This document shows, one piece after another, positions 311 through 36,585 of a stretch of 36,661 nucleotides of DNA. Location: contig NKIB01015301.1 in NCBI GenBank assembly GCA_002256025.1, forward strand, positions 1-36,661. Reading direction: 5' to 3'. Position 1 is the stretch's first letter; the number at the start of each line of letters is the position of its first letter. The stretch comes from Asterionella formosa. Taxonomy: Eukaryota. A model generated the notes under the pieces. It saw nothing but the letters and a program-made list of their open reading frames with translations, had not been told where the DNA came from and did not search any database. Both the position numbers and the translations under genes were made by a program.

Positions 311-843
311 TATACGGTATTCTTGGAGTTTTTCAGATTTCTTGAATATAGACTACCGGTAATCTTGTTTCATCGGAAATTATAATTTTATGACGAAGAT
401 AAACAAGAATTTATACATATGGACCAAAATACATTGACAAATCTGCAGCTACCTGGTACCAAAGCACCCCAGCAATGCATTTTATGCTAGAATAGAATTA
501 TAGTAATGTAATTGTAAAAATTTAGCTTCATCAAACAAGTTAATGAAGATTTCAATATAACAAGAATTGTTGCTCAGTGACTGATTATTTTTGAGGAAAA
601 GAAAAAAATATACAAACAAGCAAGCTAAAGACGAGAGCAAACTACATGCCTAAGAGAGGATTCATTTTGGACTCTTTGACACGACCTGTCACCTCCCGAC
701 AAACAGCAAGCAGCAACAACAACAACAAAGAAGCGCCGATACCGGTAGTCACTTGTTTAGCATCTGATTCAGACGAGAGTTTATTCGGTTCCAAAGGTCA
801 TTTCATCAAAGGCTTTCATCGAGACTTTTTCAAGGCACTTATA

Positions 844-1737
844 ATGGCACACCGTTTCAGTCGCAGCAAGGCTCGAATGTCAAGTGATACACATGCTCAC
901 GACGACGCGCTTGCAATATTGGCAAGTACGTTTCCAGCTGCGACAGAAGCCGAGCGTCAGAGGTTCTTGAAGGCTCGCAAAGGAAACCTTCAAAGTGCCA
1001 CTGAGAAGCTTGGTGAATTCATGGACTGGAGAGTCCGACACAACTTGGACTCTCCGGAACATGCATGTGATGGTCGAACTGACGAACAAGATTGGGCATT
1101 GGCCTCAAAACTAGCGTTGGAGTGGGAAGAACAACAAAAGGAGCACGAATCAAATCAACGATTTTCCACAACCAAGAAACGAAATAAAGTCACGATTCTG
1201 CCACAAATCGTTAATATGTATTTTATGGAAGTAGACCACAATAACAACAAAATTGTTTCACCATACAGGACCAAGGACTCCAAACTAATCCTTCACGTGT
1301 TACCTGCCCAAGTCAACAAGAAATTTGCTACTGCTGAAACCTACGCCCTTGCCAAGGCCATTTACTTGGATCTTAAATTTGATCGACACACGTCATGCGA
1401 GTTGGCTACTATTTTTATTGATGTTCGTCCCGGTCGTGGATGGGCCAACCCCCCGGCGTATACCATGATGCCATTCATATCGAATGTCAGTAGTGTATTG
1501 CATCAATACTTTCCAGAACGACTTCATCAATGCATCGTTTATCCTCTTCCTAAGGCTGCCATTTGGATTTGGGACATTGCCAAAACGTTTTTAGACAAAC
1601 GTGTGGTTGACGCTGTGTCGTTGATTGCAGGGTCGGATGCTTTGACTGCAGAGGCGCCAACGAAGGCGTTGAGTTTGCTATTGGAGGATGATGTTATCGA
1701 AAAAATGGAACAAAGGAGAGTGGATTTGTTTTTGTGA
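844..1737 (+). CDS. CRAL-TRIO (Sec14-like) lipid-binding domain protein
   Basis: N-terminal RFLKARKGN..A..KL.EF..WR (CRAL_TRIO_N), then IFIDV, LHQYFPERLHQCIVYPLP..AIWIW.IAK.FLD. The ORF is open from 646, but ATG 844 or 878 is a more likely start. Confidence 0.85.
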   Translation: MAHRFSRSKARMSSDTHAHDDALAILASTFPAATEAERQRFLKARKGNLQSATEKLGEFMDWRVRHNLDSPEHACDGRTDEQDWALASKLALEWEEQQKEHESNQRFSTTKKRNKVTILPQIVNMYFMEVDHNNNKIVSPYRTKDSKLILHVLPAQVNKKFATAETYALAKAIYLDLKFDRHTSCELATIFIDVRPGRGWANPPAYTMMPFISNVSSVLHQYFPERLHQCIVYPLPKAAIWIWDIAKTFLDKRVVDAVSLIAGSDALTAEAPTKALSLLLEDDVIEKMEQRRVDLFL

Positions 1738-1880
1738 CTTTATCATTGTCAATTAAAAAATGAAAGTAGATTTTCTCCGCATTCCTTGGATATAATTGAG
1801 GTTGCTACTCCAAAATGAACTTCAAAATAGCAATTATAACATTGAAATGATATTTGAACTTATTTTTCAAAGCAACTATT

Positions 1881-2689
1881 TTATTCCACTTCCAACGGTT
1901 CTGCTGAACACATGACACACTCGTGCAACAATGCTGTGCATTGGTTGTTCCATGTCCCACCACAACCACCACCACCACCACCCCTTTGAATTTTGTTTAC
2001 TAAGGTTGCATCCACTTCCGTTGGGCTGGTTTCACTCTCTTCCACCAACATTTTCAAAATGAAATAATTGATGCAAGCAAAGCACCCTAGTGTCAGAAAA
2101 AATGAAATAGTACGGTCCACACCAAACTTGACAAGCGATGTACTCATGGCAGTTGTCCCGATCAACGAAATGGCGTATCTGGGCGAAGGAAGAGGGGAAG
2201 AAACATAATGAGAAATGCTTTTTTAAAAAAAATTTAACAAAACGGTCACATTCAAAAAGGGCCCCAAAGCCCGTAGCAAGGAACGTACACTCGATAACAG
2301 CCTCTAAGGGTTCTCAGATACTTCTCTTTAGTCGAAATGGAATCTAGGCCATACACAAAAAATGCATTCAGCCAATGTTGCGTGGCCACTTGAACCAAAT
2401 ATGCCAGAAAAAAGGAAACAGCATGCTTATGCTCCTCAATTAGGATTGGTAGATTGGTCAGTTTGCATATACGACCATACAATATCCTTTCGAGGGTGTA
2501 AAATACAACGTTACCGAAATTTCCACTAACGAAGAATCGAAACGCTTCCGGTAGCTTGTAAAATTCGGAATAAATGCTGTCTATGTTTACTGGTACCGGC
2601 GCTGACACCGGCGGAGGAGGGATGCCTCCACGAGCAGCAGCCGATACAGCAAGTGCAAGAACAGAATAGGAGGTAGCAATGGGAAACAT
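1881..2689 (-). CDS. GtrA-like multi-pass membrane protein, 2 exons (2689-2289, 2178-1881; 232 aa)
   Basis: Intron 2288-2179 (GTACGT...CCCAG) joins two ORFs in frame as ..GCYRV/YAISLIGTTAM..; FRFFVSGNFGNVVFY...VSFFLAY..QH.LN.FFV resembles GtrA flippase-like proteins; hydrophobic N-terminus. Confidence 0.7.
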
Positions 2690-4935: not shown

Positions 4936-7900
4936 TTACTCACCCCCTTTTCTAGTGCTCCTGGCAAGAGAACGCCCGACAAAGGCTCTTGTGAAAGCTC
5001 CACCAAGTGATGGAAGATCAGTCGTAAGGATTGCACCACCAACTTCATCTCCCATGAATGCCGCCAAAGATGCAACCGTCGGAGCTCGCTTTGTTACTGG
5101 CTCCTCATCCACAATAGACGAAGCTCGTGGTCGCTTTCTATTCTTCTGTTGGGGGGGAACATAAATTCTTGGAACATTTTCTTCCTCATGCTGGTCATTA
5201 CTTGATATGGATAATGGGGAAAGCTCTTCTTCGAAATCCACGCACGTTTTAAGCAACATCATCTCGCCAGAGCTACATACAGCAAACAATCGTACCGGTG
5301 TCTCCTTTACCTCCTTTAGCTTTTCTCCAACTCTGACCCACGCGGCGGTTTGCTTTTGCTTACCGGTGGCGACAACCGAGATTACCTTACCATTCAATTC
5401 CCATATCAGGCTTTTATTTGGGGTCCCGGAAGTCGCATCTAACAACAACACCTTGGTCACCTGCTTCTTCACGAAAAAGGTTGAAATAGCAACCATCTCG
5501 TGACTTACCAGGAACTGAGCGTTCAGGACTGCGGCGTCCTCACAGTTGGGAGGTACGGCACATTTCCAACCTTTCTGACCTTTTGACCCAAAAGGTGACT
5601 GAACTAACACTGCAGATTTAGATATTGTCATTACCATGTCAGCATTGGTTGTTGTACTGATGAATTGGATGCTGTCAATGCAATTGGTATCACAATGCTT
5701 GATTGTATGCATGAGGACGGCTTCCTTGTGATTCCATAGAGAAATCAAATGGCCATAACAGATAGCTAAGGTGGAACCGTCTGGGGAAAAGCAAGCACCT
5801 CCACGACTAGTGCTGTGATTCGAAAATCCAGCTGGTGTTGTCACCTTGTACTGGCAAACCCATACCGGAGTCCGTCGACTCTTCGTGTGATCCTCTTCAT
5901 CTGGGATCGCCGAGATTCGTCTCCAGACTCGAAAGGCATTTTCATCATTACTGACTGTGCATGCAACGTCCCCACGAGGCGACAGTGCAATTGAAGAAAC
6001 TTGATTTTCTTCCCCATGAGGAAAAGTCATGACCGCAGATACGACGTACGGCACTCTCTTTCCTTCATCTGTGGTCGTAGGAGAATGCGTCCAAAACTTG
6101 ACAGCTGTGATTGTACCCAGTTCTTCGTCGTGGTAGGTACGGGGTGCCCCTACATAAGCGTTTTCTGTTGGAATAACTTCAACAGTCATGACATCATCGC
6201 CAGACTTGCTAAAGGCGACCTGCGTCACCTCTGGAGCTGGCATGGGATTGTCAGCTTGTTCTGTTCGACTGACTCGGTTGTAGGGTGCAACTTCCAGTTT
6301 ACATGTCACATGTTCCTCTCGAGGATCAAACCAGTGCAAACAACCAGGAGCTCCTTCCAGTCCAGTCAAGACCAAGTGAGAGTCTGATTTTGGGTCAACG
6401 AGTACGGTGGCTTCATTACCAGGAGTTGCCAATCCATGCACCTTCCAGATTCGCTTTCGGTTGTGCGCTCGAACTAACTGCAAAGAATTGTCTTCACAGT
6501 AAATCAAAATTCCATTTGGATTGATCGCAACAATGTGCACAATACCTCCCAAAGCTACACGAGGTAAGACGTCGGCTGGCCCAGATGTCCCCTTCGATAG
6601 CTGCCAAATGACCAATACACTTTCTTCTCCTCCACTATACAACATGGGCTCTACGGCATCACTGAGTCCATGGTAAGCCATGGCCATGACTGGGTGAGCA
6701 TGCCAATGCACTCGTCGAACAAGGACTGATTTGTAAGGCTGTTGTGGTTTTTCTGTCGCATCTTTGTCGGCTTTTATTACTTGTTGGTGATAATCTAAAA
6801 CGGTGGGAATCACATTCGTCATGACTCGAACATCTCCTAGCCAATAGCCGCACGTCACGTCATTTCCGTTGGGCGAAATAACTACTGAAGACAGAGTATC
6901 ACCATCTTGTGCTGGAAAGGTTAACATGGGAGATCGATTTGTTACGACTCCGCTCACCGTTGATCCAAGATGTTCATGATAGATATGAAAACCATTGCTT
7001 CGGGCAAGGACACAAAATATGTCACGATTCGTTTGTTCAGAAAATTGCTTGTGTGCCTTGCGAGACAAGGAACAAAGTCGAAAAATAGAGGTATTATTGT
7101 ATTCGCCAAACTTGTCGAAACCAACAGTGCACTTGATTTCTTCTTTTAGAGACACCTGCTTCTTCTTAAGTTGAATCGTTGAGAGGTTTTGGTGCAGAGA
7201 TTTATCGAAGACTGGCAGCATGATGCGGTGGAGACATTGGGTAATTAAGTGAACGTTTTCTGGTATGTCATCATCACTGTCCTTGCAAGGCTTTTCAGAC
7301 AAGGAAAAAAGCACAGTTCCATCATTCAAATTCAGGTCGGTTGGAGCAGTTAAATGATTGATAATAAGATTGTCTAGCATACGAAACACTCGTCTGGGAC
7401 GAAAGCAAGGACCAGAGAGTTGAAATGTGCCACAATCTGGGTTATTTGGTTGCGGAACTGCTTTCGCAGAAGTCAGCTCAGCCAATGCAAACTCACGAAG
7501 GGATCCATCCTGACAACCAACCAGTAAAATTTGTTCTTCGGTTTCCATAGAAACCATGGCTGCATCATCTTCGTCGCCAGATACATCGATATCATTGTCA
7601 GACTCGTCGTCGTTAAGTTGTTCTTGAAGAGCCAAATGAATGTCAGTTTGTTTTTTAGGAAGGTTCGCAAGGCAAACACTCTGAATAAGGATATGTTCTT
7701 CTTCGCCATTTCTCCTTGGAATAAAATGTGCGACTTTTCGTCCTGTCTTGTACGCTAACACAGTGACAAAGCGCTTGTTGGGCAATAAGATGAATTGCTC
7801 GTTTCCATCATCAAAAATCACAGGCTCGAGTATTTCCCATGCAACTGGATCTTGATGCGTCTTCCGCTTTGTCCTTGAGTGAAGGTCTCGCTTGGCGAGC

Positions 7901-7953
7901 ATGGGGCCGCCTACCCTTAGGGTTGCAGTCTCGATCGCCGCAATATCCGTCAT
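4936..7953 (-). CDS. WDR75: WD-repeat protein 75 / Utp17 (Nan1), t-UTP small-subunit processome component
   Basis: 1005-aa single ORF with VHWHAHPV, LYSGGEESVLVIWQL, VLPRV, CFSPDGSTLAI and a C-terminal LPSL...F motif typical of WDR75/Utp17. Confidence 0.85.
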   Translation of the reverse strand: MTDIAAIETATLRVGGPMLAKRDLHSRTKRKTHQDPVAWEILEPVIFDDGNEQFILLPNKRFVTVLAYKTGRKVAHFIPRRNGEEEHILIQSVCLANLPKKQTDIHLALQEQLNDDESDNDIDVSGDEDDAAMVSMETEEQILLVGCQDGSLREFALAELTSAKAVPQPNNPDCGTFQLSGPCFRPRRVFRMLDNLIINHLTAPTDLNLNDGTVLFSLSEKPCKDSDDDIPENVHLITQCLHRIMLPVFDKSLHQNLSTIQLKKKQVSLKEEIKCTVGFDKFGEYNNTSIFRLCSLSRKAHKQFSEQTNRDIFCVLARSNGFHIYHEHLGSTVSGVVTNRSPMLTFPAQDGDTLSSVVISPNGNDVTCGYWLGDVRVMTNVIPTVLDYHQQVIKADKDATEKPQQPYKSVLVRRVHWHAHPVMAMAYHGLSDAVEPMLYSGGEESVLVIWQLSKGTSGPADVLPRVALGGIVHIVAINPNGILIYCEDNSLQLVRAHNRKRIWKVHGLATPGNEATVLVDPKSDSHLVLTGLEGAPGCLHWFDPREEHVTCKLEVAPYNRVSRTEQADNPMPAPEVTQVAFSKSGDDVMTVEVIPTENAYVGAPRTYHDEELGTITAVKFWTHSPTTTDEGKRVPYVVSAVMTFPHGEENQVSSIALSPRGDVACTVSNDENAFRVWRRISAIPDEEDHTKSRRTPVWVCQYKVTTPAGFSNHSTSRGGACFSPDGSTLAICYGHLISLWNHKEAVLMHTIKHCDTNCIDSIQFISTTTNADMVMTISKSAVLVQSPFGSKGQKGWKCAVPPNCEDAAVLNAQFLVSHEMVAISTFFVKKQVTKVLLLDATSGTPNKSLIWELNGKVISVVATGKQKQTAAWVRVGEKLKEVKETPVRLFAVCSSGEMMLLKTCVDFEEELSPLSISSNDQHEEENVPRIYVPPQQKNRKRPRASSIVDEEPVTKRAPTVASLAAFMGDEVGGAILTTDLPSLGGAFTRAFVGRSLARSTRKGGE

Positions 7954-8030
7954 GGTTTCACTGAACTATGTGAAGTTACTCTGTGCAGGAGGGGGCTATA
8001 CCTACTTTCATTTACGGTTATGACATCTAG

Positions 8031-8073
8031 TACCGGTAGGGGACTACCAGGTACCGGGGTACCTGGTACCGTA
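8031..8073. repeat. Cluster of TA-CC(n)GG-TA palindromic units
   Basis: TA CCGG TA ggggac TA CCAGG TA CCGGGG TA CCTGG TA CCG TA. Confidence 0.8.
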
Positions 8074-8324
8074 GTTTTCATTGCATGTTGTGATGCTTTT
8101 GTCTTCTTCCTCCCCCTTTGTTTCTTCGCCTTCAAAATTATTGGGTGGAGCCTAAGGCTTGAATCACAAAAGGTTATGAGGAATTTGCCAATGCATGCAT
8201 CGCTGTGGTTTTACCTGGTAGGATTGCTTCTTACTTGGTACCCCTGTTACTGGTACTGTACCTGGCAGAGACCGCGTGATCTTCGTACATACCGGCAACT
8301 GGTTCCCAACCTGGTACCTGGTCC

Positions 8325-8412
8325 TTGCGGTCATTTTGCTCATACTAACATTTTAATCTCCGATAAAGATAGCTAAATCTTTAGTTTCAGCAAAATTTCC
8401 GCAACTTGCTGG
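8325..8412 (+). mobile_element. MITE-like family A, copy 1 (left end truncated)
   Basis: TTGCGGTCATTTTGC...GATAAAGATAGCTAAATCTTTAG..CAGCAAAATTTCCGCAACTTGCTGG matches the copies at 13.4 kb and 25.4 kb. Confidence 0.7.
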
Positions 8413-8878
8413 TGTCCCAGACCACCACAACTGGGAAATGAGCAGCCATACCAGTACGTGAGGATCCGTACCACCTACGTACAATCAAATTCTTACCTAT
8501 TTACTGCTTTGCTTCGTCCAAACATACAGCACGAGCGAGGTATCGGTACATAGAATAATGCATGGATGAATTACCGGTATAGGCCCGTAATGTTATGCAG
8601 TCTTTAGTCGTCAAAGTGCATGCGGGGGAAGAGTAATGAGCCCCTCAAATGCATGTTACACATGTGAGACACGTAACATCAATTTCTATTTTTAGCATTG
8701 GAATTTTCCCTTTTTCTGGTGTACAGGAGTATCAAAGTTGGTAATTCTATCGCAATAATACGCATTGGGGAACAAGCCGTTGCTTGCTATAGGTACTAAA
8801 TTGGAGTGCGAATTTATTTAAACTTGGACGTTTCTTGTGCAGGGTACAACACATTCATCATCTATGCATGAAAAAAAG

Positions 8879-9904
8879 TTAGGATTTCACCGTGACCCAA
8901 CTAGGCTTGGAGTCATCATAAGCTCGGCATGTATCTTCCTCGCATTTGGTACAGCCAACAGGATGTTTCCAAAATGTGGAATGTCCTTTCCCAGAACAAT
9001 CTCCGTCAAGACATTCATCTGTAGGCCGTCCATTGGTGTAGTAATACAAGGCCATGGATCTTCGTGCCCTTCCCTTGGGTGCTACCAACGGCTGAGGGTG
9101 CCCATGGTATGAAAAATCAGTCGTACTAAATACCACCACACGACCCAGAACGGGAAGGATACGCTGTACACAGCTGGTCAAGTCCTTCGACCAAAGTTCC
9201 AAATGTCCTCCATGGTCTTCAGACCAGTCGGGGTTTAGGTAAATAAAGGCATTGACTCGTCGATCAATGTTGTATTTGGGTCCATGCTTGTTAAAGTCGG
9301 CGTGTACCTGTAGTGATCCACCAGTAGCTGTAAAGTGAATTCCACTCCCCTTATAGTGAGGATCTGGAATAATCCCCACAATCCCTGACAGGTCTTCCAG
9401 AAAGGTGAGAAAGGGCGACGATTTCATAACTCCAAACAGAATTCTGGTATACACGCCCATCAAATCTTCGTGGTCAATATAGGATTTCTTATTTTGCTCA
9501 AAGTTCTGATAGCACGTCTTGTGGGCATTGTGCAAGCATCCACTGAGTACTTCCGATTCTGGGTTTTCTTTCAAAACTTGTTGCAGGATGGAATCAGGAA
9601 AGATGCCATCAATGGCAATGTGAGGGTATGGATCCCCCATGCTGTACTGTTGCTTGTACTGGTCTGAAATGGACTTGAGTCGTTCGGCAGATACTGCGGC
9701 GAAGAGCTCTTCAATGACAGACACTTGAATATCCTTGGTATGCTTGGTGTCCTTCATTTTTGCGTACAACAATGCTTCCGTGCACGCTGACGAAGAGTTC
9801 CAAAAGTACATGAGCAATGACGCGACCACGACGCTCCCTGCGATGAGCGGGATTGGCACTTGTCGTTTGGCGGCAGCATATCTCTTGGTGACGAACGGCG
9901 ACAT
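8879..9904 (-). CDS. 2OG-Fe(II) dioxygenase (2OG-FeII_Oxy_3 / prolyl-hydroxylase-like) with N-terminal membrane anchor
   Basis: HxD in LQVHADFN, RRVNAFIYLNPDW, GGHLELW, distal His in SYHGHP, RRSMALYYY (2OG-binding Arg); hydrophobic residues about 16-34. Confidence 0.9.
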   Translation of the reverse strand: MSPFVTKRYAAAKRQVPIPLIAGSVVVASLLMYFWNSSSACTEALLYAKMKDTKHTKDIQVSVIEELFAAVSAERLKSISDQYKQQYSMGDPYPHIAIDGIFPDSILQQVLKENPESEVLSGCLHNAHKTCYQNFEQNKKSYIDHEDLMGVYTRILFGVMKSSPFLTFLEDLSGIVGIIPDPHYKGSGIHFTATGGSLQVHADFNKHGPKYNIDRRVNAFIYLNPDWSEDHGGHLELWSKDLTSCVQRILPVLGRVVVFSTTDFSYHGHPQPLVAPKGRARRSMALYYYTNGRPTDECLDGDCSGKGHSTFWKHPVGCTKCEEDTCRAYDDSKPSWVTVKS

Positions 9905-10466
9905 GGTGGGGTAGTTTAATTAGTCCTGTCTTTAATATTACTACCGGTGCTAACAACAGAGGCTACCGGTAAATGTATGACTCAAATCAGCAAGATACAA
10001 GGAATTTGTCTACCGGTATGTTCTATGCATCAGAAATAATATTCCGGTAATCCGGTAATAGTGAGCGACACAACCTAACAAGAGATTCTTGTCTTACATC
10101 AGGATATGATCATGTATGTTTAATCATACACCGAGTCAAGTTGACAAAAGTGAGTGGCGGACTTGCGTTGATATGCAAGAATGGATATATAGAAGTTTAA
10201 AATCCCAATTCCATATAACAATGAGTACATTGATACTTTGATTTCGAACTAGGGGCGAAATAAATATCTTATAAATCGCATTAGTAAATCATTCGTTTTT
10301 TGCTTCTACTATTTTTTTTTCATTTATACCCGTATATGTAAAAAAACCCAAATGTTTTGCAAAGCTGCTTCGGTATGATAATACTGTATAAGACTATCAG
10401 CGGCAGTTTTGGGTCGTGCGTGCACAAATCCGAACCACTACAGCTGTCAATACAGTACTAACATCG

Positions 10467-11240
10467 GTGGCTAGTATGCATATACATAAAATGATGGATA
10501 GAAAGAAATGATTATGTTCATGATGTAGTATGGAAGTGGAGCATGTTTATAGTACCAGTAAATAAGAGTCTTTGCAACACCTGATGTGTTCTGGACTCTT
10601 GTTCAAACAGTGAACTGTAGGTTTACTGTACAATGAATAGTCTCTGTTTCAGACCACAGCAAATTGTGTGTGTTATTTGGGAGGAAAGTAGAAAGCAGCT
10701 TCAAAAATACCATTATTCAGATGGTGTTGCATTGTGCAACTAAAGCAATTTGACTTACTAGCTACTAGCAGTTGACTGGCTGGGATTGTTAATGGCAAGT
10801 GGATGAGTTCCCAAGATGATATATAGGATCATGGTGAAGTAGATAACAAGCAATGCTGCTATACAAAATGTATGGCTTGGAATGTTTGTTTGGAGCAGGA
10901 GCAATGTCTTTTTTGTTTGTACAAACAACCCAACATACATACAAGCAACTGTGCCAGTACTTCTACTTACTGGTCTACCATATCATGTTCAGCCCCCATC
11001 ATGAATGCATGCATGCATCATTCAGGAGCATTGCATGTGACTGCCAACTTATAATATAGTACTGATAATGGCCATCTCCAATGCACCATTCCAATCTCAC
11101 ACAGCAAAGCAAGGCAACAAGGAGGAAGTAACTACCAGTACAGGTATTGCAAGTAACAAAAACCACATCATGCAGGATGGCACAGCATCAGGGAACAAGC
11201 AATGCAGCCCTGCTAATGATAGGTGTTGGTGTTTGTTTGA
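10467..11240. other. CpG-free intergenic block, probable decayed methylated repeat/TE
   Basis: No CG dinucleotide found by eye between the CGs at 10465 and 11241; rich in TG/CA; no credible ORF. Confidence 0.6.
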
Positions 11241-11445
11241 CGAAAGCTGGTCTGTAGTCAGTACGGAATTTATTCATACCGCTACCGGTAGTAAGGTATT
11301 ATTTTGGTATACCAGCACTACCGGGAGCTTTACTAGTGCATAACGGTGGCATAAGTAAGAATATATTTTTGCCACATCAAAAACTCCGATTCTCTGAATT
11401 CATAAAAATTAAACAGCGCCGACCATCATCTGCTATATCATCACC

Positions 11446-12351
11446 ATGGCCACCATGGCGAGCGGACCAGACGAAGACTTACCAACGCTTATCCGTCGAA
11501 AGGATCATTTGAACATTCTCCGATATGTTCGCGCTCATCAGCTGAGAGATCCTGATCTTGTCATTGTGCACGCCAAGGCGCTGTTAGGGGACGACCTCCA
11601 GAAGAAGCTCAGTGATGAATCTGCCCGTCTAGCTGCACTAGAACAGACTTGCTTGGCTGCTCTAGACGTGCAAAATCACGAATTATCAGAGAAATGTCTC
11701 TCCAGGCTTTCAGAATCGGTTGGGAATGAAGCGACTCGATTTCGCATGTTGTTGGCACGTTGTCTGGAAAGTGCCGGGGACACGAGCGGTTCCAAGATTA
11801 TTTACGATGATCTTTTGAAAGACAACCCATCCAACCTCATGGCATTAAAACGCTTGTACTGCTTGTCTTCGACAGAAAAGGAAGCTGTCGAATCGCTCAA
11901 CAAATTTATTCAGCAAAACATTGCCGACCCCGCCGGCTGGTATGAAATGGCCAAACTACGTTTGAGCATGGGTGATTTCAAAGGAGCTGCTTACGCACTA
12001 GAGGAAGTTGTTTTGGCATGTCCATTGGACTCGTCGCTTCACTGTCAACTGGGTGAAGTGTATGCTACCCTGGGAGGTACTGAGAATTTGCTCCTGGCCC
12101 GAAGACACTTGTGTCAGAGTTTGGAACTTGACGATTCCAATCGACGGGCAATGTTCGGCCTGGTATCCGCTGGAAGCAATTACATTGAAGCCACAAAAGG
12201 GAAAAAGGACGCAGATGAACACGAAATTGAAGTTTCGAAGGAGCTGGTCAAGTACGGCGTTGAGAAGATTGGCATGGCTTACAAAGGCACCAAGATGAAT
12301 AGTGCCGTCCAAAGCGTGATGAAGGATCATTCGGATATTGCTAATCTCTAG
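11446..12351 (+). CDS. EMC2: ER membrane protein complex subunit 2 (TPR protein, TTC35)
   Basis: 301 aa; LEQ..LAALD, YDDLLKDNPSN..ALKR, GWYEMA.L....GDFKGAAYALEE.VL..P, LGEVYATLGGTENLLLARRH..SLEL..RAMFGL. Confidence 0.9.
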   Translation: MATMASGPDEDLPTLIRRKDHLNILRYVRAHQLRDPDLVIVHAKALLGDDLQKKLSDESARLAALEQTCLAALDVQNHELSEKCLSRLSESVGNEATRFRMLLARCLESAGDTSGSKIIYDDLLKDNPSNLMALKRLYCLSSTEKEAVESLNKFIQQNIADPAGWYEMAKLRLSMGDFKGAAYALEEVVLACPLDSSLHCQLGEVYATLGGTENLLLARRHLCQSLELDDSNRRAMFGLVSAGSNYIEATKGKKDADEHEIEVSKELVKYGVEKIGMAYKGTKMNSAVQSVMKDHSDIANL

Positions 12352-12635
12352 GAATATAAAATGTCATCGTTGATCCAAACTTTTCTCGAATGTTTTTATT
12401 CATGGTGAGAAGTTTTGAGAAACGGCATATGATTTAAAAAATTTACACTCCGAATATTGAAGGATCTGTCGATTTCGCTTACACATTGCCAATCGCTACT
12501 ACTCTGAACGAAGAAACCAAGAAGATGCGAATAATCTTCTTCTCTATCTTAAAACAAGGCGAAAATCCATAGTAGTTTCTACAGGAGCGAACGAGCAAAG
12601 AAAGAACCATCGATCTAAAATTGTTTTCAAAACTA

Positions 12636-13097
12636 TTAACTATTACTCTCAATTCGTTCAATCATGGCATCTACAGCTGTCTGCACTTTCTCTGGAGTGG
12701 ATTGACTATCATTCCACGCAGGTTTCAAATTGTCTTGTAACAAAAACCGCCCAACTAGATTTCCTTTATGGACTGTCAACCAATGCTTCTTCTCCACGGC
12801 ATCAAAGGATGTCCATATGCGAGCTTGGTCGACTTCGTAGGTTGGAAATTTCAACAGAAATGTGCCATCTCGTTGAAGCACAAGTCCCGTGTCAAGACCC
12901 GTTCGTTGGACCCATTCACTCCTAGATGTTTGCAAATGTTCTAAAACAAGTTGAGAGAGTGGATGGACATACTCTTTTGTTGTTGCCTTGATTGAAAGAT
13001 AGCGTTGAGGTAGAAATGGAATTGCTTTGGTGGAATGGCAATTTATGGAACCAATTATAGAAGTAACGCTTCGGCTTCGACCAATTGATGACAACAT
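12636..13097 (-). CDS. Hypothetical protein with a mitochondrial-presequence-like N-terminus
   Basis: 153-aa ATG ORF; N-terminus rich in S/R/I and lacking acidic residues, ending QRYLS; globular-looking core (HPLSQLVLEHLQ, RIWTSFD..KKHWL). Confidence 0.7.
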   Translation of the reverse strand: MLSSIGRSRSVTSIIGSINCHSTKAIPFLPQRYLSIKATTKEYVHPLSQLVLEHLQTSRSEWVQRTGLDTGLVLQRDGTFLLKFPTYEVDQARIWTSFDAVEKKHWLTVHKGNLVGRFLLQDNLKPAWNDSQSTPEKVQTAVDAMIERIESNS

Positions 13098-13201
13098 CTT
13101 TGGTCAACTAGAAATTTACAACCAAATGAAGGATGACACGAAAAAACGTCGCGGGTAAAACTTAAAAGCGAAGGGAGTTTTTTTGTAATCAACTACGACA
13201 G

Positions 13202-13247
13202 TACAAGTATTATTTTACGACATTACAAGTATTATTTTACGACATTA
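13202..13247 (+). repeat. 22-bp tandem duplication
   Basis: TACAAGTATTATTTTACGACAT x2. Confidence 0.9.
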
Positions 13248-13367
13248 TTAAGAAAGTGAATCAAAATCTAGGATACATACCGTATGAGAATAAACTACCG
13301 GTATAATGCTGAGCTGGAAGAAAGCAACGAAGACGAGGAGGATGGCGTGGCATACTGCGCAATTTTG

Positions 13368-13432
13368 GTAATTTTGCTGTAGCTAAAGATTTAGCTATCT
13401 TTATCCCAGTCAAAATGAGCGCAACTTGCTGG
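13368..13432 (-). mobile_element. MITE-like family A, copy 2 (minus orientation)
   Basis: Minus strand reads TA|CCAGCAAGTTGCGCTCATTTTG..GATAAAGATAGCTAAATCTTTAGCTACAGCAAAAT. Confidence 0.7.
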
Positions 13433-13459
13433 TATACAACTTACAACTGCAAGGTCCGG

Positions 13460-13496
13460 TAAAATAGAAATTTAGCTTTAAAATAGAAATTTAGCT
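13460..13496 (+). repeat. 19-bp tandem duplication
   Basis: TAAAATAGAAATTTAGCT(T) x2. Confidence 0.85.
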
Positions 13497-14017: not shown

Positions 14018-14059
14018 TCCTAAACTAAATGTCAGCTATCCTAAACTAAATGTCAGCTA
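14018..14059 (+). repeat. 21-bp tandem duplication spanning the formamidase stop codon
   Basis: TCCTAAACTAAATGTCAGCTA x2. Confidence 0.9.
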
Positions 14060-19670: not shown

Positions 19671-19753
<83 letters not shown>

Positions 19754-22710: not shown

Positions 22711-25399
22711 TAAGTGATAACCAGCAGACCGAATATTGTAGCACATCATTGTCCATCAGAATCTCACTCGTCCTCTTGCGCATTTTTGTACCGCCTCCTC
22801 TCTCTTGCAGAAGCAGCAATAACAATACTATGAGGAATGGGATAATTTGCAAGATAACTGACAAAATGAAAATCCAAGAAACATCCTTCAAGGCAGATAA
22901 CAGCAACCAGGCAAGGAATCAATTGGCAAAGATTTCAATCAATGCTACAATTATCAACAGAGCACCAGCCAGCAGGACTGGGGGAAGCAACAAACGGGTA
23001 GTTAAATGGACAGGTGTAGTGATGGAGATGAGGCAAATTGCGATTCGCAGATGCATGGTTGGGAGATCAATTTTGGAATAGTAAGCCATTGCATGCAGAT
23101 TGCCTAGTAAATGGCCTACAGATCCGTCAGATTGTTGTCAAAGTGCCCCAAAATATGTAAAAACCCAGTAGTCTCTAAGAATCATTAATTTCTATTGTTT
23201 GTTATCATTATACCTGTTCAATAGTTCACCAATGCAACCAAAAGCGCAACCATTGTCGATCAGCTGGTTGATTTAACATTGCTGTGGTTTTCTTGTGCTA
23301 TAATGTGCTTGAGGGGTATCTCAATGGCCGATTTTCCAAAATATAAAAAGATTGACATAAAGTAGTACTATAGGCATGATTTGTTGAGAGGCTCCACTAA
23401 GATTTCAGTGAAACTCGAAGAAGAAGTTTCACCTATAGGAATAATAGTTAAAACAGCCAAGAAAATAAGGTTGCATGTATAGTAGGAGTGAATATTTAGA
23501 GGAGATTGTAGTTCATCTTTTCCTATGGTAAACGGAGAAAAATAATTTTGTTGGTTGGCATTTGTTGACCAGTTTTTGGACGCCCCTCGCACATGTGATG
23601 CATAAGGTAATCATGCGTCATGTTACCAATAAACCGATCAGCATTATCAATGATGGTTGCATTGGATGAATAACTATAACAAATAAAACAACATGGATGA
23701 GGCCAATATTCTAACTAGCTAGCACAGTTTCTAGTCAATAAGTGGCTGATGGTATGATAACGGGAACGCACTATATTTATAGAGCATCTATGTGGTATGC
23801 ATCATCCCCCATTTTAGTGAGTATGTAAGGCTGCAGATGGAAAATTTCCATTAAATTTTTATACTACGTTAAAGCTATCCAATAATCGTACTCTTGCCAA
23901 CTTGAATGGACACAATTAGTACCGGTTTTATTCATCCATACAGTACAACGTGACCTGTCTCTTCACCAGCCTTTCCCCGGAACCCTAGGGACTATATAAA
24001 AGAAAGACTGGTGAAAAAATTCAGGAATCTAACCCTGCTGCACCTCATGAAGTGTGCTTTCCAATTAAACCATTCCCTTAAGGCTGCAGATGAATAGGTT
24101 TATTGTAGATTGTTGGACGCAAAATCCTTTTTTTTTGATACCACAAAATATTCCAAAAAGAACTTACTTTGGATGCAACACTATTCTTCAGCAGCACCTC
24201 CCAAATCGGGCCATCTGTAAATTTCCCAACACATGCTGGTCCCTTGGTTTCTTGGGTGCAATCAAATCATTGTCGCATCATCTTCTTCCTGTTCCACTTG
24301 TCATCAGCCCTCTTCCATGCAGTCACTCACCATCGAATCACGAACACCTCCTACTAATGGAAATTTATGAAGCAAGAGGGAGAGTTTGCTGAGCGAAGCT
24401 TGGAGTGGTTACTACACATCAAACCCAAACAATCAACCTACAGACAAGAGTTTGCTTTGTCACTGTCAAGGTCTCATCATTCAACGGGCTTAATAACCAA
24501 ATGTAACACTTACTGTGGTGCCACCCAACAATGTTGGGCTTTGTATGCTGTGCAAGGCCGATTGTCAAACTACAGTGGCAGAGGAATGATCATGGCTGAT
24601 GAAGCAACTAACAACAATGTGACAAGTGTATCATACATGGTGGGTCAGGTATCAGTATTTGAAAAAGCTTCATACTCCTTCCTGCATGCTGGGTTTCTTT
24701 GCGTAGATTTGTACATGCTAGTAGTACTCCCTAGTATCACTTACTTTTTCTCTGCTCTGCTTCTAGTAGTAGCCTTCCTCCTAGAAAAGCTAATTGGCCT
24801 TCCTGTCAATTCACACACTGTTCCCTGAATTGATAATCTAAAAATTATAAGCTAAGCTAAAGTTTCCTTTCTATGCATCTTTGCTTCCCACAATGTCGTT
24901 CTAAGACACTATATTCAGCTGATTGGCATGGCAATGCAAGATTTGACTCATTGGATTACAATCGAGTCCACAATCCTCTTGACTTAAGCTAATTTTCTTG
25001 ACAACAGTAAACCACCCTGCAAGAAATGCACATCTTGAGAAGCAACTTACTCCATGGTTCATATCTTGCCAGTCATGTTCATTGTTTCTATTCAAGATTT
25101 TTTTTAAATTCATCGCGGTTTTGTCAATTTACTTACGATTTTACTATTACCTACTATTTATTCAAATATTACATGTGCAATTTGATCGCTCATCAGAGCA
25201 GCCGGCCGATTCACGAACTTCCTCCGTCTAACTTTTAAGCAATGACTTGCTGGTAAGCTGCGTTTTGTATGCTTTGTTCATTTTAATATATGCATTGGAT
25301 AAAAGCACCCAGAAAGTCATTGACCTGATCGAGATCTCAGTCCGCTGCAGGACCAAAATTCTACAGTACCAGGTACCTGGTACCAGGCAGGTACAGGTA

Positions 25400-25499
25400 C
25401 CAGCAAGTTGCGGTCATTTTGCATAAATACGTGATTTTATATGAGATAAAGTCAGCTAAATATTTATCTTCTTTCAGCAAAATGACCGCAACTTGCAGG
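25400..25499 (+). mobile_element. MITE-like family A, copy 3 (most intact, about 100 bp)
   Basis: Perfect 20-bp inverted repeat GCAAGTTGCGGTCATTTTGC (25403-25422) and 25477-25496; left end TA|CCAG; preceded by a CCWGG-TA array at 25367-25399. Confidence 0.8.
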
Positions 25500-25530
25500 G
25501 ACCAGGTACCTGTTATACAAGGGCACCCCA

Positions 25531-25671
25531 AATTTCTCGGAGCAGCCACGGAAGTCGGAGAGAGAGTTACAGGATTACCGTTAGTATACAAATTTTCAGT
25601 CTGTAGGACAAAACATGTAACCAGTCGCGGCATCCGACCAGTATTTCTACATCACTCACAAGAGCTCCATG
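25531..25671 (-). repeat. Repeat family B, copy 2
   Basis: Reverse complement aligns by eye with 22558-22710. Confidence 0.8.
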
Positions 25672-26067
25672 CGTTTCAGGTTCGTAGATCATTGGTACAT
25701 AGATACTAATGACGACGTATTTACTTCGTATCAGAAAGACGCCCACCGGTATGTTCATGCAACCAATAGACCAAACTCGCGCTTGTCGGAGTTCTTCGGC
25801 TCGCTAAACGTCGTCCCAACTCGCTGGCGAGTCTCCCTTGACACAAATGTACCGAAATTTGCGTCCGTTGAGCTGAACCGTGGCATTGGTGTTCTTTGAC
25901 CGGTACCGGTATGATATATATTGGAGGAATCTTCCTTACCTGGTACCCGTACCTGGAAGCTGATGGATGGTGTACCATGCAATTTAGTCTAAACAATATT
26001 CGCCTAAATTTCTGTGCCACGAAACAAGATAACAGAATAAGCTTTTATTTCACAGCCGCAAGCAACG

Positions 26068-28246
26068 ATGAAGATGATAAAAGTTCCATCGACAATGAAA
26101 GTCCATGATAATCAGTACAGCAGGGCAGGTATGTTAAGTTTTGAGGAGCTTCGTGATGACATGACCAAATATCTTAACAATCTGTGTGTATGTTTCTATT
26201 GCAGGACAAATGGATACCCGAGATCCGCCTCCTTTGGCTTGGAGCATGCCAATCCAATGCGCTTGCGGAAAGCCAATTGTCCCTTCGGATAACCGAAAGA
26301 AAAATACTTCTTCTCTCGATGCCTTTGGAGGACTCTGCTACCCAAGTCTACTCATAACAGCTGTTACATCTTTCAGCGAAGAACGCAAAGAATCATCGTA
26401 CCATCATGAAAAGAATTCATTGGGTTTCCCGACAAGAAAGGGTGGCTCGTCAGCGTTAGATCAAAGTCTTAATGATCTGGGCCATATGTGTCACATGTGT
26501 GCGCAGCGATACAGAGACCAAGCAAGCATCCAAATTCTAAAAGAAGCCGTAAGTTTCTTTGTTTCGACAGGGGGGTGCACTTTAGAAAGGTACAAAGCTC
26601 ACCATTTGTAATTGTTGTTGAAAAATCAGATAAGTGGAAGCCAACTTGCTTCTGCCGCAAAAGGTCAAGATGAAGCTGGTGCTCTCACTATTCCACTTGG
26701 GCAAATTGAATTCTACAAGAATCGACAGATACAATTTGAGGAAATCAATCAACGAAGCCGTTCAGACTTTTTAGCCAAGTTGAAATTGAACTTGGCACCT
26801 ATTCTGCCCACAGCAAGGAATCGCTCGATCCCAATGCGAGCAAGAATACCCGCAGTATCAAGACCTTCAAATCAAGTGCTTACACAAACTTCAATTCCAC
26901 CTCTGTCACCAATCCTAACGAGATCATATTCCGATGGAACCATTGAGTCTTTGGTGGCTTTAACACTTTCGCCTAAATCTATTTTGAAGCAATCCACATA
27001 CGCACCAACTGGTATCGACATGAAAGCATCAACCTGCTCGTGTGACATGAGCACCACCACCAGGGGATCTACTTTAACCCAGTTGGCCAATAATGCAAAG
27101 TACAATCAACTTTATTCCACACTGGAAGCAGAATCTTCTGTGGAGGAAGCCCAAGGTCTCAGCGAAGGACTTTTGGAGGCTCTGTCGCAGGAAAGTCATC
27201 TTGAAATGACACTCCTGAATATAGTGAGTGTGGGGTCGGATGGGATAGAGTTGATCGAGCTGGAGACGTTGGACGATTCAGACGAAGCACTTGTAGAGTT
27301 TGTTGAGAACAAGCTCCAAGGACTACTAGACAATCCATCGCCACTGGGAAGTCAGGCAAACGAAGCACTTGTAGAGTTTGTTGAGAACAAGCTCAAAGGA
27401 CCACTAGACGATCCATCGCCACTGGAAAGTCAGACGAACGAAGCACTTGTAGAGTTTGTTGAGAACAAGCTCCAAGGACCACTAGACGATCCATCGCCAC
27501 TGGAAAGTCAGACGAACCAAGCACCTGAAGTAGAGTTTGTTGAGAACAACCTCCATGGACTACTAGACGATCCATTGCTACTGGAAAGTCAGACGAACGA
27601 AGCTCTTGTAGAGTTTGTTGAGAACAAGCTCGAAGGACTACTAGACGATCCATCGCCACTGGAAATTCAGACGAACAAAGCACCTGTAGAGTTTGTTGAG
27701 AACAAGCTCGAAGGACCAGTAGACGATTCATCGCCACTGGAAAGTCAGACGAACGAAGCAGTGGTAGAGTTTGTTGAGAACAAACTTGAAGGATCAGTAG
27801 ACGATCCATTGCTACAGGAAAGTCAGACGAACGAAGCCACTGTCGAAAAAGAGACTATTCGTGCCCCCCTCTCTCTTGACGCGGATCGCGTACGCTATTT
27901 TAGCATTTTCGATTATGAGAAAGTAGTGGTTGCCGTCTCCACAGAAGAAGCGGAAGCTCAAGCTGCTGCTTATAGAATTTGTCCCGAACAAGGCGCTGAA
28001 TGTAATGGCAAGAATCCCAATATCTTTCAATTACGTACCACTGTATTTGGTGAATCCCAATCTAGCAGAGTTGAGGGGAGAGATGATGATGGGGATGGCT
28101 CGGAATGCTCAATCATTGAGGTACAAGGAACAACGAACGAGAAAACTGGCGTGGAACGAACCATTAGTGAGGAAAGGGTGGGTTGGTTCACAGATTGTCA
28201 CATTTCTACCTTTGTCTTAACCTTGTGTCACAGATATCGAGGATAA
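26068..28246 (+). CDS. Hypothetical protein with Cys-containing N-terminus and acidic 26-aa tandem repeats; exons 26068-26128, 26205-26548, 26630-28246 (possible extra intron 28178-28233 extending to TGA 28314)
   Basis: Phase-compatible introns 26129-26204 (GTATGT..TTGCAG) and 26549-26629 (GTAAGT..CTCAC..CAG) join three ORFs and remove the TAA at 26609-26611. Confidence 0.65.
27283..27839 (+). repeat. Coding minisatellite, 78-bp unit x about 7 (EALVEFVENKLQGPLDDPSPLESQTN)
   Basis: Unit starts at 27283, 27361, 27439, 27517 (81-bp unit), 27598, 27676, 27754 and a partial unit at 27832. Confidence 0.95.
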
Positions 28247-34800: not shown

Positions 34801-35120
34801 CCTATTCGTTTCAACTCAACCCACTTTTTTCGCCGCGGTCTTTGCTTTTGATAAGGACGAGAATGACCATTATGAAAAATGGTTTGACGCTGCTGTGAGT
34901 TTGGGTCCTCCCCTTCTTTGTGAAGCGGATGCCGATGAATTAGGTCTTGATTCAAATGCTGAACTAGGTAGTCACTGCGTCGGCCGTCAAACTCGTCTGA
35001 ATAGCTTCTGTGTCTTACAGCGTTGTTCTGCATCTGTTCCTCGCTGTCTGAGTAATGATCATGGTGCTGCGGGAAACTCCCGACTGTACACATCCATCGA
35101 TCATCAGCTTCCATCATCAT
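31872..35120 (-). CDS. Type-II membrane protein: degenerate UDP-glucuronate-4-epimerase-like SDR domain fused to a DUF616 (MUCI70/TOD1-like) domain
   Basis: TM segment at about aa 106-122; RVLITG..IG, THIVHLAS, YASS, VFGPWDRP, DFSFVDNVV, WKPETSLQTGL..W; then CDIVLYT, CNFAFV, GWILMWV, LLKISP..FF..ALFVD, LRCEWYQE..LSFAYIM. Confidence 0.8.
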   Translation of the reverse strand: MMMEADDRWMCTVGSFPQHHDHYSDSEEQMQNNAVRHRSYSDEFDGRRSDYLVQHLNQDLIHRHPLHKEGEDPNSQQRQTIFHNGHSRPYQKQRPRRKKWVELKRIGVASIVIAYVWLMYRGLQMLQSHEIVTRDFPPGSRKVLYAAREQFSQMRWLNRQRMEGQRRTWPAMDVAELQPCDFALLDKVPRRDNAEKIDLGEPASLKELCGIHARNAAVLHSELFRSRDVLNSESRVLITGILNPIGLHLALTLKKRCGVEVIAGIDPMFPNTVENRIAMQERIQLLATNIPKLVQPVVLSRIGLDQRPTKGKDTDQGFLDATGEISLLNLKPTHIVHLASYSASEFNKGQFVNTHSPYGGQSDLYQIRSNAVAMEHILASLVSASADTDRPHFSYASSVSVASSFDTHDSCKLTDEILANTYYNMNRTFSVAMRLPNAVFGPWDRPQTSVHQIAEAAIQQWGRSPDTLLNRTDGSYDFSFVDNVVDAIIASMQFRSPMPAIFDLSSDSTHKLSTVASLIKEMLPGGSVQTNLTLERSRVPTNPLKQLTRDLLQWKPETSLQTGLAKTMAWHLDHAFPFGANTTTSETGDKFRTRLKIDTCSSDDLLCHLGATYIPCSSECSTRQNCKPSIFDSIQFVTREVSQGCDIVLYTQSLGYNVRDLKLHTTYSEEEEVSICNFAFVPKLSHLVHAAVAKVPEEQLEGFGIKLNPGEAADLNSFHTRKLNGLNGRLLYKGWILMWVDEGIDELSVFDSSLLKISPGSFFSSDVKHALFVDENFAISPSTEDVLFLVSQSHRPKIPIRNAWRVEVDGKKHKYRLPAEPERRAVLMLSPLRKGKVHDPSKNTNYHSLTVYEATKYMQVENGEDIDAKETQGVKKQREFYERVSTYVNQVDMRSPDEPWYRYDMHHWTRSKWIVHNLKLEEAKRLRCEWYQEHVQWGNNLVPLSFAYIMAKRDLARRIAHKEPDDHIKPASVLHPELRQLTDSHEWHAMESEENRLANINPMEALAEVPANMIDEDEKEEAVTTLQGLSVHESIPKKHDKAVPLFVRIISEQVMMHERQSWSVGYGNYKAGKKKSRTRKKE

Positions 35121-35724
35121 TTTTCCAGAAGTATGACGATGAATGTTGAAGCCGTGACCTCCTCGCTGCGAGATAACAAGTCCACAAGACCTGACGCTGT
35201 CTACAAGTAGGAGATAGTCTACACTTGAGGATGGGGACTGAGCTATTATTAGTCAGAAGGACTAAACAACCGGTTCGTGACGGGTCTGGGTCCAAAATGC
35301 CATTGTGTGGCAATATTACTGGTACAGAATCCCCGAATAATATATATATGTAGGACTGCGACCACATATACGACAAAACACCATCCAATTACCAGTACAT
35401 GTTGCAAATGTATCTATTCATATATGTATACCATGTACAATCCTAAATAATACGACAATATGATACAGATAATGTACAATGTTGTCATAGGATTTATTTC
35501 ACAATAGCCGTCGATATTCCAGCTACCCACATTCTCAAAAATACTTGTCAAAACGCACGTACAGCCAGATGAACATGTACCCCAACGTATGCACAGTATA
35601 CCCGGAAATAAAAAAACCAATCCAACCGGTACGTCGTTAATTTGTTACCTTTAACGGTAATGGTTATGAGCAGCATTCACAGCCATGTAGGGACTATTCT
35701 GCTGACACAAATGAATTAGTCTGC

Positions 35725-36085
35725 TGAATGAAGGGTCATATCCTGACTTTTCCAAAAACATGGTGCACAAGTGGTTTTCATGATATCTGGGTCAAGCAAC
35801 ACAGACCAGGTAATAGAAACATTACCTATTCTTTATGATCCTTGTGCTTTTTTTCATTCACATTTGTTTGCTCTCTCGCTCAGTCAAGTAGAATAACTGT
35901 TCAACCTCTGGAACATATACCATTTTTCATCCACATGAACCTGATCATAATAGCCATCATCAACCCAAAACTTAAGTGGTTCAGGACCCAGCCACTTCAG
36001 GCAAAGGGTGAAGTTGTTCTGGGTGATTCGCTCAACTGTCAACTTTGGAGGGATAGCATTTGTATATGCTCAAATGACATCCCTC
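35725..36085 (-). mobile_element. Degenerate Tc1/mariner (plant-mariner DD39D-like) transposase fragment
   Basis: Minus-strand motifs in the expected order: VI*AYTNAIPPKLT (about 36078-36037), YDQVHVDEKWY (35949-35917), VMFL and VA*PRY (35825-35783), GKVRI*PF (35753-35730); contains frameshifts and stops. Confidence 0.8.
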
Positions 36086-36585
36086 TGTCAATCCCCTCTT
36101 GAAATTGAAGAAACTGTGGAATTTGGCAAATTAAGTGCTGAGGCAAGTAGCTTACAAAACATGGTGCATTTGTGAAAAGTAATTTGCTTTATATCTTTTT
36201 ATGGTAGTTGATTTGGTAATGCATTGTTACAATTGTTGCTGTGCCTCGTACAGGTACTGTAGTCTGAAGTCTACTGGCTTAAACAACACACAGGGTATCA
36301 TTACCGGTAGGTATGTATGTATGTATGTAGACCTCGTTTTGAAGAAAAAGTAAATATTATGATAGCTCGATCTCATGTATGCGTTACTACCGTTACATGA
36401 GATACACCGATAGTACATATCATAGCCAAAATTAAATTTCATATTCCTGTGTCTACCCGTGCATACATGTGTGTACCAGGTGCGCACAGGTACACATTCC
36501 GGTAACCAGGTACCAGGTCTACCGGTAATCTACTTCTTGTTACATCGGGAACATCTTCCCAGCACGTCCCAGTAAATTCTTTCAG

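Follow-up and report, generated by a model that had tools for sequence, protein, structure and literature searches.

A TA-bounded palindrome repeated in the DNA of a freshwater diatom and its possible origin as transposon excision scars

Why does one 8-bp palindrome recur so often outside the coding DNA of a diatom? The question is raised by contig NKIB01015301.1 of Asterionella formosa, a stretch of 36,661 nucleotides (nt), here called the window, in which the word TACCGGTA occurs 15 times. A preliminary description of this DNA had offered three origins for the word, namely, a transposon footprint, a promoter element, or a methylation or chromatin signal. We found that the footprint is the option best supported by the anatomy of the word, which reads as TA, end bases of a miniature inverted-repeat transposable element (MITE), and TA again.

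All 15 exact copies were found where the preliminary description had placed them. The mean number of copies in 100 dinucleotide-preserving shuffles was 0.18, with a maximum of 1, and none of the shuffles attained 15. Markov models trained on the window predicted 0.17 to 0.63 copies at orders 0 to 3, 4.2 at order 4, and 12.7 at order 5. The two highest orders are circular because the word supplies most of its own subwords: TACCGGTA itself accounts for 15 of the 24 occurrences of ACCGGT in the window. Lower-order k-mer bias therefore fails to explain the count. In the non-coding DNA of the window, the excess was approximately 25- to 80-fold. Among the 256 palindromic 8-mers, only two (AT)n words outnumbered TACCGGTA, and both derived from a single microsatellite, a perfect (AT)34 tract at 19683 to 19751; a T30 run lies at 36588 to 36617. 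When the 16 palindromes of the form TA-xy-y'x'-TA were compared, enrichment was confined to the word with the CCGG core and the microsatellite word. The over-representation is real and strong.

Within 150 bp on either side, the 15 copies had no sequence in common beyond 13 to 14 bases, longer matches arising only from overlapping extraction windows. Since the flanks cannot be aligned, the copies are not parts of a longer repeat, and this candidate was rejected. The base before the word was C in 8 of 15 copies and the base after it G in 6 of 15. Past the word, 11 of 15 copies had a T at offset +7 that was not matched by an A at the mirror position on the other side; in several cases it starts a further GGTA or TA, and it may be due to chance or to a decayed neighboring unit. 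One-mismatch variants numbered 28 in non-coding DNA, compared with 7.0 expected, and were enriched 3- to 4.5-fold in all four position classes, an evenness that would fit neutral scars undergoing decay. If the decay is taken as neutral, the ratio of one-mismatch to exact copies implies a divergence of approximately 16%, which is of the same order as the 75 to 87% identity between the MITE copies described below.

A second enriched set of 8-mers comprised ACCWGGTA and CCWGGTAC, and GGTACC was enriched as well. The 9-mer TACCWGGTA occurred 10 times in the window, compared with 0.10 times in shuffles, and TACCSGGTA did not occur. Its middle base was thus A or T in all 10 copies and C or G in none, and every copy was non-coding. 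Units of both words overlap by their TAs to form arrays, with a period of 7 at 16095 to 16117 and 25367 to 25382, a period of 6 at 25899 to 25911, and a mixed period of 6 and 7 at 818 to 846 of L033, a 1-kb relative of the window. The 9-mers, as 7-type units, and the arrays are distributed as follows:

450 to 458: TACCTGGTA, a 7-type unit
8045 to 8068: two 7-type units (TACCAGGTA and TACCTGGTA) with CCGGGG between them
8212 to 8220: TACCTGGTA, a 7-type unit
10043 to 10059: two tandem TCCGGTAA units, one mismatch from TACCGGTA
16095 to 16117: array of three 7-type units with TAs in common
25367 to 25399: array of 7-type units, partly decayed, reaching straight to the TA that flanks a MITE
25899 to 25911: CCGGTACCGGTA, an in-phase pair of 6-type units, one of them the exact TACCGGTA at 25904, 164 bp upstream of the ATG at 26068
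25937 to 25945: TACCTGGTA, a 7-type unit
36470 to 36527: decayed mixed array of 6- and 7-type units, the last being the exact TACCGGTA at 36520

Four sequencing runs were compared with the window: X2 (DNA), X8 (polyA-RNA), X10, and X12. An RNA contig of X12 carried the array at 16095 with one 7-bp unit fewer (at 16100) and six additional bases (TGCCGG) immediately before the TACCGGTA at 16144. These unit-sized changes were seen in one of the four runs, representing one related strain, and both lie next to existing units. They are 2 of the 12 indels tabulated over 20 kb, beyond which there are 6 further indels and 164 substitutions.

Self-comparison of the window revealed a repeat of approximately 90 to 100 bp at 8325 to 8412, at 25408 to 25499, and, inverted and partial, at 13367 to 13417. 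The copies of this MITE and the stretches that resemble its tips are given here with their strands:

8317 to 8412, plus strand: MITE whose left tip is damaged and stands after CCTGGTACCTGGT units; TG follows the right end, ...CTTGCTGG; very high run depth
13367 to 13432, minus strand: partial MITE with intact tip ...CTTGCTGG followed by TA (13433 to 13434)
25400 to 25499, plus strand: most complete MITE, 100 bp, with TA before CCAGCAAGTTGCGG... at the left and GA after ...CTTGCAGG at the right, then CCAGGTACC
25246 to 25255, plus strand: solo MITE-tip-like CTTGCTGG followed by TA
16081 to 16094, plus strand: weak MITE-tip-like stretch (GTTGCAACTTCCCGG) directly ahead of an array, not significant alone

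The last of these was rejected as a degenerate MITE, only its tip being alike and the match not being significant. The MITE ends in CCAGC...GCTGG, and its 32-nt arms are 88% complementary in the copy at 25400 to 25499; the ends are conserved across four copies, three in the window and one in L033. TA flanks all four copies on the left and one of the four on the right, the other right flanks being TG, GA, and GA. In the consensus of contig ends from X2, X10, and X12, ...GTA stands before CCAGCAAG and TA after ...CTTGCTGG, at a low agreement of 0.42 to 0.65; the right tip ...GCTGG followed by TA is the consensus of 21, 3, and 2 contigs, respectively. A 4-bp GTAC target duplication fits almost as well as TA. 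The summed contig depth in X2, which may include other organisms, reached 2270 to 2661 at 8343 to 8344, compared with approximately 5 elsewhere, and the contigs left the element into many different flanks. The MITE is therefore a high-copy dispersed element.

A scan of metagenomes with a 14-base MITE tip returned 120 loci, of which L033 was the single real copy. The other 119 (635,549 bp, mostly high in GC and from other organisms) were chance matches and contained seven copies of TACCGGTA (0.011 per kb) and one of TACCWGGTA. Scans of viral contigs with a 20-base MITE end and with a three-unit array gave no match in either case. The MITE is approximately 100 bp long (less than 500 bp) and without coding capacity, and no Pfam match was obtained among the scanned open reading frames (ORFs) in 22.4 to 26.1 kb; tRNA and Rfam scans of very deep spots found no RNA gene. 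These properties fit a Stowaway-like MITE of the Tc1/mariner type.

A second MITE-like element is located at 228 to 310, the repeat extending to approximately 319. It has 21-nt inverted ends (CTTCATTGTCCTGGGCCCCCC and its complement, with one mismatch) around a core of approximately 40 bp. Its contig depth was very high in all four runs (2124 at position 289 in X2, compared with approximately 5 elsewhere), and from 319 the contigs jump to the other MITE or to arrays. The 3.7 kb from 22396 to 26067, between divergent genes, hold MITE sequence and arrays, but no ORF there has convincing codon usage or a Pfam match. A weak inverted match lies within them (22555 to 22640 against 25588 to 25674), and the region could be decayed mobile DNA or an unrecognized gene.

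The relationship between words and MITE was evaluated with a grid of 36 strings, in each of which k bases from the start of the left tip and j bases from the end of the right tip are joined and bounded by TA on both sides. The string with two bases from each end is TACCGGTA, with 15 copies observed and 0.63 expected. Two bases from the left and three from the right give TACCTGGTA (6 observed, 0.24 expected), and three from the left and two from the right give TACCAGGTA (4 observed, 0.17 expected). In other words, the palindrome is made of the two outermost bases at each end of a MITE from the same window, with TA on either side, and the third bases of the two tips, A and T, match the middle base of the 9-mer. 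Mildly raised counts were obtained for TACCAGTA and TACTGGTA, which take three bases from one end and one from the other (7 observed, 1.8 expected), and for TACCGTA, with two and one (5 observed, 1.4 expected). The one-end-only strings TACCATA and TATGGTA occurred 3 times, compared with 5.4 expected. No copy of the (3,3) string TACCATGGTA was found (0.11 expected), which is unremarkable because the 15:10 ratio, with independent two- and three-base cuts, predicts only approximately 1.7. Words and MITE also meet physically. Arrays adjoin the MITE-flanking TA at 25367 to 25399, at 8311 to 8322, and in L033, where a mixed run, TACCGGTACCTGGTACCTGGTACCTGGTA, and another TACCGGTA stand ahead of the MITE. 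Five of the 14 non-coding TACCGGTA copies have an exact 9-mer or a MITE no more than 100 bp away, compared with 1.8 expected from random non-coding positions (P = 0.027).

The same counts bear on the idea that the words are a methylation or chromatin signal centered on CCGG or CCWGG and kept by a sequence-specific DNA methyltransferase or reader. Such cores match classic methyltransferase targets, and the CpG-decay variants TACCAGTA and TACTGGTA are the ones found somewhat raised above. However, CCGG as such is also coding, with 37 non-coding and 25 coding occurrences in the window, and the idea leaves the outer TA, the arrays, and the link to the MITE unexplained. We regard it as highly improbable.

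We hypothesize that TACCGGTA and TACCWGGTA are excision footprints of a cut-and-paste family with CC...GG ends that inserts at TA, and that repeated visits to the same sites build the arrays. In our judgment, the chances of this explanation being right or wrong are about equal. The family, seen in the window as the Stowaway-like MITE of approximately 100 bp, would insert at TA and duplicate it. On excision, the transposase would cut two, and sometimes three, bases inside each end. A cut two bases inside each end is established for the Tc1 transposase, and for CC...GG ends cut in this Tc1-like way, TA-CC-GG-TA is therefore the expected scar. End joining would leave this sequence, with six bases added, or, through alternative joints, TA-CCA-GG-TA or TA-CC-TGG-TA, with seven. 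Each scar would restore two TAs. Revisits at a scar TA, including short hops of a neighboring MITE or a relative of it, may then add units in phase and produce arrays with periods of 6 and 7 bp. Scars would be kept in spacers and untranslated regions (UTRs) and purged from exons by selection, with the exception of in-frame 6-bp scars in tolerant regions. The single coding copy, at 740, would be one of these; it adds a multiple of three. One mechanism would thus explain why the word is palindromic, bordered by TA, and built on a CC/GG core, why the middle base is restricted to A or T, and why the periods are 6 and 7 bp, as well as the contact with the MITE, the unit-sized indels, the near-absence from exons, and a decay that is even at all positions. 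Repair after transposon excision, a known process, is the likely cause, here working at an unusual scale and producing arrays.

A precedent exists in Caenorhabditis elegans, where taCATGta was recorded as a rare Tc1 excision footprint (Eide and Anderson 1988, cited in PMC3520976). The likeness is that TA, two bases from each element end, and TA make an 8-bp palindrome; the worm footprint is described as rare and has a CA/TG core, whereas the diatom word is the most over-represented 8-mer of the window, has a CC/GG core, and occurs in in-phase arrays. For mariner and Stowaway elements, excision sites are described as retaining the duplicated TA together with short pieces of the element ends (PMC4561436). 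Stowaway-like MITEs resemble the diatom element in being short, non-coding, and present in many copies, with inverted ends and TA flanks. The diatom element differs in that no autonomous partner with a DD(E/D) transposase was found in the window and that TA follows on the right in only one of the four directly read copies. A density of approximately one scar per kb of spacer, with footprints in arrays, lies outside the published description of Stowaway, as far as our literature search showed; nothing pertinent was found on footprints of MITEs or mariner elements in diatoms or on how abundant footprints are genome-wide.

Several observations weigh against excision scars. Neither a plain-TA nor a MITE-filled allele was seen at the 15 sites, so that we infer the history of insertion and excision, and it is because no site displayed an empty or filled allele that we claim no more than an even chance. 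The right flanks of the MITE vary as given above, so that a clean TA duplication is limited to the left side and to the consensus of the runs. Isolated 8-mers favor C before and G after, whereas MITE copies lie between G and C; this mismatch would need the extra assumption that the surviving MITE copies sit mostly in older scars. Approximately 25 exact scars stand against three MITE copies, about eight to one, which to our knowledge is far above the ratio in any known genome. For half of the non-coding TACCGGTA copies (7 of 14), the nearest exact 9-mer or MITE is over 1.5 kb away. The 2,030 bp of spacer between two 3' ends contain none of the 24 non-coding members of the word family, a distribution that a promoter element predicts too. 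Pfam scans of 28 ORFs found no transposase gene in the window. Furthermore, the unit-sized indels could come from ordinary slippage, and the whole case rests on 36.7 kb and one 1-kb relative.

Slippage also figures in the view that the words came first. Palindromes of the GGTACC type would arise and multiply by a route of their own, for instance replication slippage or gene conversion within a simple repeat, and the MITE would target their TA, its tip motif matching them by coincidence or because the element adapted to its target. The G before and C after the flanking TA, in MITE copies and in the run consensus, form a GGTACC-like context; arrays change by whole units, as microsatellites do; and the remoteness of half of the 8-mers from any MITE is in keeping with this order of events. 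It nevertheless provides no origin for approximately 14 isolated single units, which have no repeat to slip on, and needs a tip-base coincidence that we estimate at 1 in 16. For the TA-bounded form, the A/T-only middle base, and the exclusion from coding DNA, it does no better than the footprint model. We consider it quite unlikely that the words are primary.

The position of the words relative to genes was assessed on an approximate gene map built from ORFs, Pfam hits, codon scores, and RNA contigs, which assigns 22,238 bp of the window (61%) to coding and 14,423 bp (39%) to non-coding DNA. Long ORFs carry the domains WDR75, RNase HII, CRAL/TRIO, ABC1, MatE, DUF1604, formamidase, and 2OG oxygenase, and short GT..AG introns are visible in RNA contigs. 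The ABC1 protein has a 98% match in a metagenome, and its named matches are all diatoms, at approximately 60 to 70% identity. The stretch from 7900 to 17800 was found in DNA and RNA runs labeled algae, freshwater metagenome, or lake metagenome. The genome had been described as diatom-like, and the intron-bearing eukaryotic genes and the diatom origin of the best named protein matches agree with this; the window is nuclear DNA of a freshwater diatom. Apart from the two copies that end or belong to the arrays listed above (25904 and 36520), TACCGGTA occurs at the following positions:

354 to 361: 292 bp upstream of the CRAL/TRIO ATG (646) and 89 bp from the 7-type word at 450
740 to 747: in frame in the CRAL/TRIO coding exon (ORF 646 to 1737); RNA contigs of X10 and X12 read TACCGGCA (746 T>C)
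8031 to 8038: approximately 94 bp outside the 5' ends of WDR75 RNA contigs (7927 to 7937), first of a loose cluster with 8045 and 8060
8572 to 8579: 144 bp past the 3' end of a 2OG-oxygenase RNA contig and 160 bp from a MITE
9964 to 9971: likely 5' UTR of the 2OG-oxygenase gene (ATG 9904), inside RNA contigs
10011 to 10018: likely 5' UTR of the 2OG-oxygenase gene, inside RNA contigs
11283 to 11290: 163 bp upstream of the EMC2-like ATG (11446)
13296 to 13303: 199 bp upstream of the ATG of ORF 12636 to 13097 (minus strand) and 64 bp from the partial MITE
13692 to 13699: 165 to 212 bp past the 3' end of formamidase transcript contigs
16144 to 16151: between the ABC1 3' end (16177) and the 5' side of formamidase
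19009 to 19016: 279 bp upstream of the ABC1 ATG (18730)
19229 to 19236: 499 bp upstream of the ABC1 ATG (18730)
36302 to 36309: followed directly by a (GTAT)n run

The earlier statement that all copies lie outside coding exons holds for 14 of the 15 and fails for the one at 740. RNA contigs cover this copy. It falls within a poorly conserved N-terminal region of the CRAL/TRIO protein, whose start is common to homologues. A relative of 98% identity has the same two extra codons in mutated form, and relatives of 57 to 59% identity cannot be aligned there. By spacer type, the non-coding copies number seven in 3,664 bp between a 5' and a 3' end, four in 5,613 bp between two 5' ends, three in 2,186 bp at the window ends, and none between two 3' ends. 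All 24 non-coding family members, 8-mer and 9-mer together, are in spacers that have, or at the window ends possibly have, the 5' side of a gene.

This distribution is in line with the main alternative explanation, in which a dimeric transcription factor would recognize TACCGGTA, perhaps as CTACCGGTAG, as a palindromic cis-regulatory target in promoters and 5' UTRs. The site would possibly be an old stramenopile element, and the 7-bp arrays and the MITE would be separate matters unless the MITE carries or mimics half-sites. Eight copies sit 60 to 300 bp upstream of an ATG, the flanking C (8 of 15) and G (6 of 15) extend the palindrome, and TACCGGTA forms a homotypic cluster in the 5' UTR region of the 2OG-oxygenase gene. 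In two studies, RNA contigs of this gene stop close together, at 10088 (X8) and 10091 (X10), a weak hint that the agreeing ends mark the transcript start. However, the word has no fixed position. It ranges from about -250 to about +130 of transcript contig ends, which cannot fix true transcription starts; some copies lie just past 3' ends (8572, 13692, and 16144), and one is within a coding exon and mutated in the sister strain. No common function is evident among the genes adjoining TACCGGTA sites. A binding site also leaves unexplained the A/T-only middle base, the in-phase 6- and 7-bp arrays, and the arrays adjoining MITE ends, and it reduces the identity of CC/GG with the MITE tips to a coincidence expected by chance in approximately 1 of 16 cases by our estimate. 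No candidate factor is named for it.

A parallel for a regulatory role comes from oomycetes, which like diatoms are stramenopiles and in which the identical 8-mer has been predicted as a promoter motif. TACCGGTA is the predicted promoter motif M94 of Phytophthora infestans (Roy et al. 2013, PMC3597505). According to PMC10031896, it has two counterparts, streme-5 (ATACCGGTAT) in Plasmopara halstedii and the motif-9 (GTACCGGTA) that Seidl et al. described in 2012. In the accessible portion of the P. infestans paper, M94 is not among the motifs described as functionally tested. The preliminary description had not recognized the word as described for a diatom-like genome. This stands, as our search found no paper joining TACCGGTA with diatoms, save an oomycete paper that mentions them in passing, but the 8-mer as such has been published. 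In these sources, the same palindrome is over-represented upstream of genes in another stramenopile lineage and is paired there with TACATGTA (M93/motif-1), which likewise has the form TA-xy-y'x'-TA. The oomycete word is read as a transcription factor site tied to expression stage, whereas the diatom word is tied to a MITE. The flanks are lineage specific, A..T and G.. in oomycetes and C..G here. Both TACATGTA and TACCGGTA are enriched before effector genes. Seidl et al. weighed a Tc1-footprint origin of TACATGTA and dismissed it, citing how abundant and how conserved the word is. To judge by the diatom data, abundance by itself seems a poor reason for such a dismissal. Oomycete effector genes lie in transposon-rich regions. 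Taken with the evidence of the window, a regulatory site seems to us possible but rather doubtful as the origin of the diatom word.

The preliminary description had also likened the word to HIP1 (GCGATCGC) of cyanobacteria. The resemblance is superficial: both are 8-bp palindromes far above expectation, but it ends with their distribution. HIP1 is prokaryotic and abundant also inside genes, whereas the diatom word is eukaryotic, TA bounded, linked to a transposon, and nearly excluded from coding DNA, with 1 of 15 copies in the 61% of the window that is coding.

Other features of the window were recorded along with its genes. A 78-bp unit is repeated 7.1 times with approximately 90% identity at 27282 to 27837, within the long ORF 26612 to 28246; the repeat is coding and corresponds to 26 residues per unit, in a protein without a firm Pfam family. 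One polyA-RNA contig (X8) at 11467 to 13164 covers both the EMC2-like gene (plus strand) and the convergent ORF 12636 to 13097 (minus strand), which suggests overlapping 3' ends in the 284-bp spacer, although one contig cannot prove a single transcript. The joints of ABC1 at 17384 to 17643 vary by run: X8 has a 73-bp GT..AG skip (17569 to 17643), and in X10 and X12, 10 different bases take the place of 247 bp (17384 to 17632). The variation probably reflects a strain difference or an alternative structure of the intron region. The spacer and 3' region of formamidase contain tandem duplications of 21, 22, and 19 bp at 14018 to 14059, 13194 to 13247, and 13460 to 13496, respectively, the 21-bp duplication having one unit fewer in the X10 and X12 contigs. 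Gaps in RNA cover, such as that at 10673 to 11339, were not counted as evidence.

If the words are excision scars, one short word would allow past transposon movements in a diatom genome to be counted, at roughly ten departures per element that remains, and transposons would have a simple route by which to create microsatellites and reshape promoters and UTRs. We tentatively propose, as something less probable than the scar origin itself, that cut-and-paste elements in unicellular stramenopiles are so mobile that their scars dominate the short words of intergenic DNA and that re-landing gives birth to 6- and 7-bp microsatellites, or scar trails. Were this true, the transcription factor sites TACATGTA and TACCGGTA of oomycetes would be wholly or partly transposon scars, and motif catalogues would need to be re-read. 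Palindromes from promoter motif discovery could then be repair scars, and caution would be warranted especially for those of the form TA-xy-y'x'-TA, which include two well-known oomycete motifs. If, instead, TACCGGTA is a binding site common to diatoms and oomycetes, it would be among the few candidates for an ancient stramenopile cis-element.

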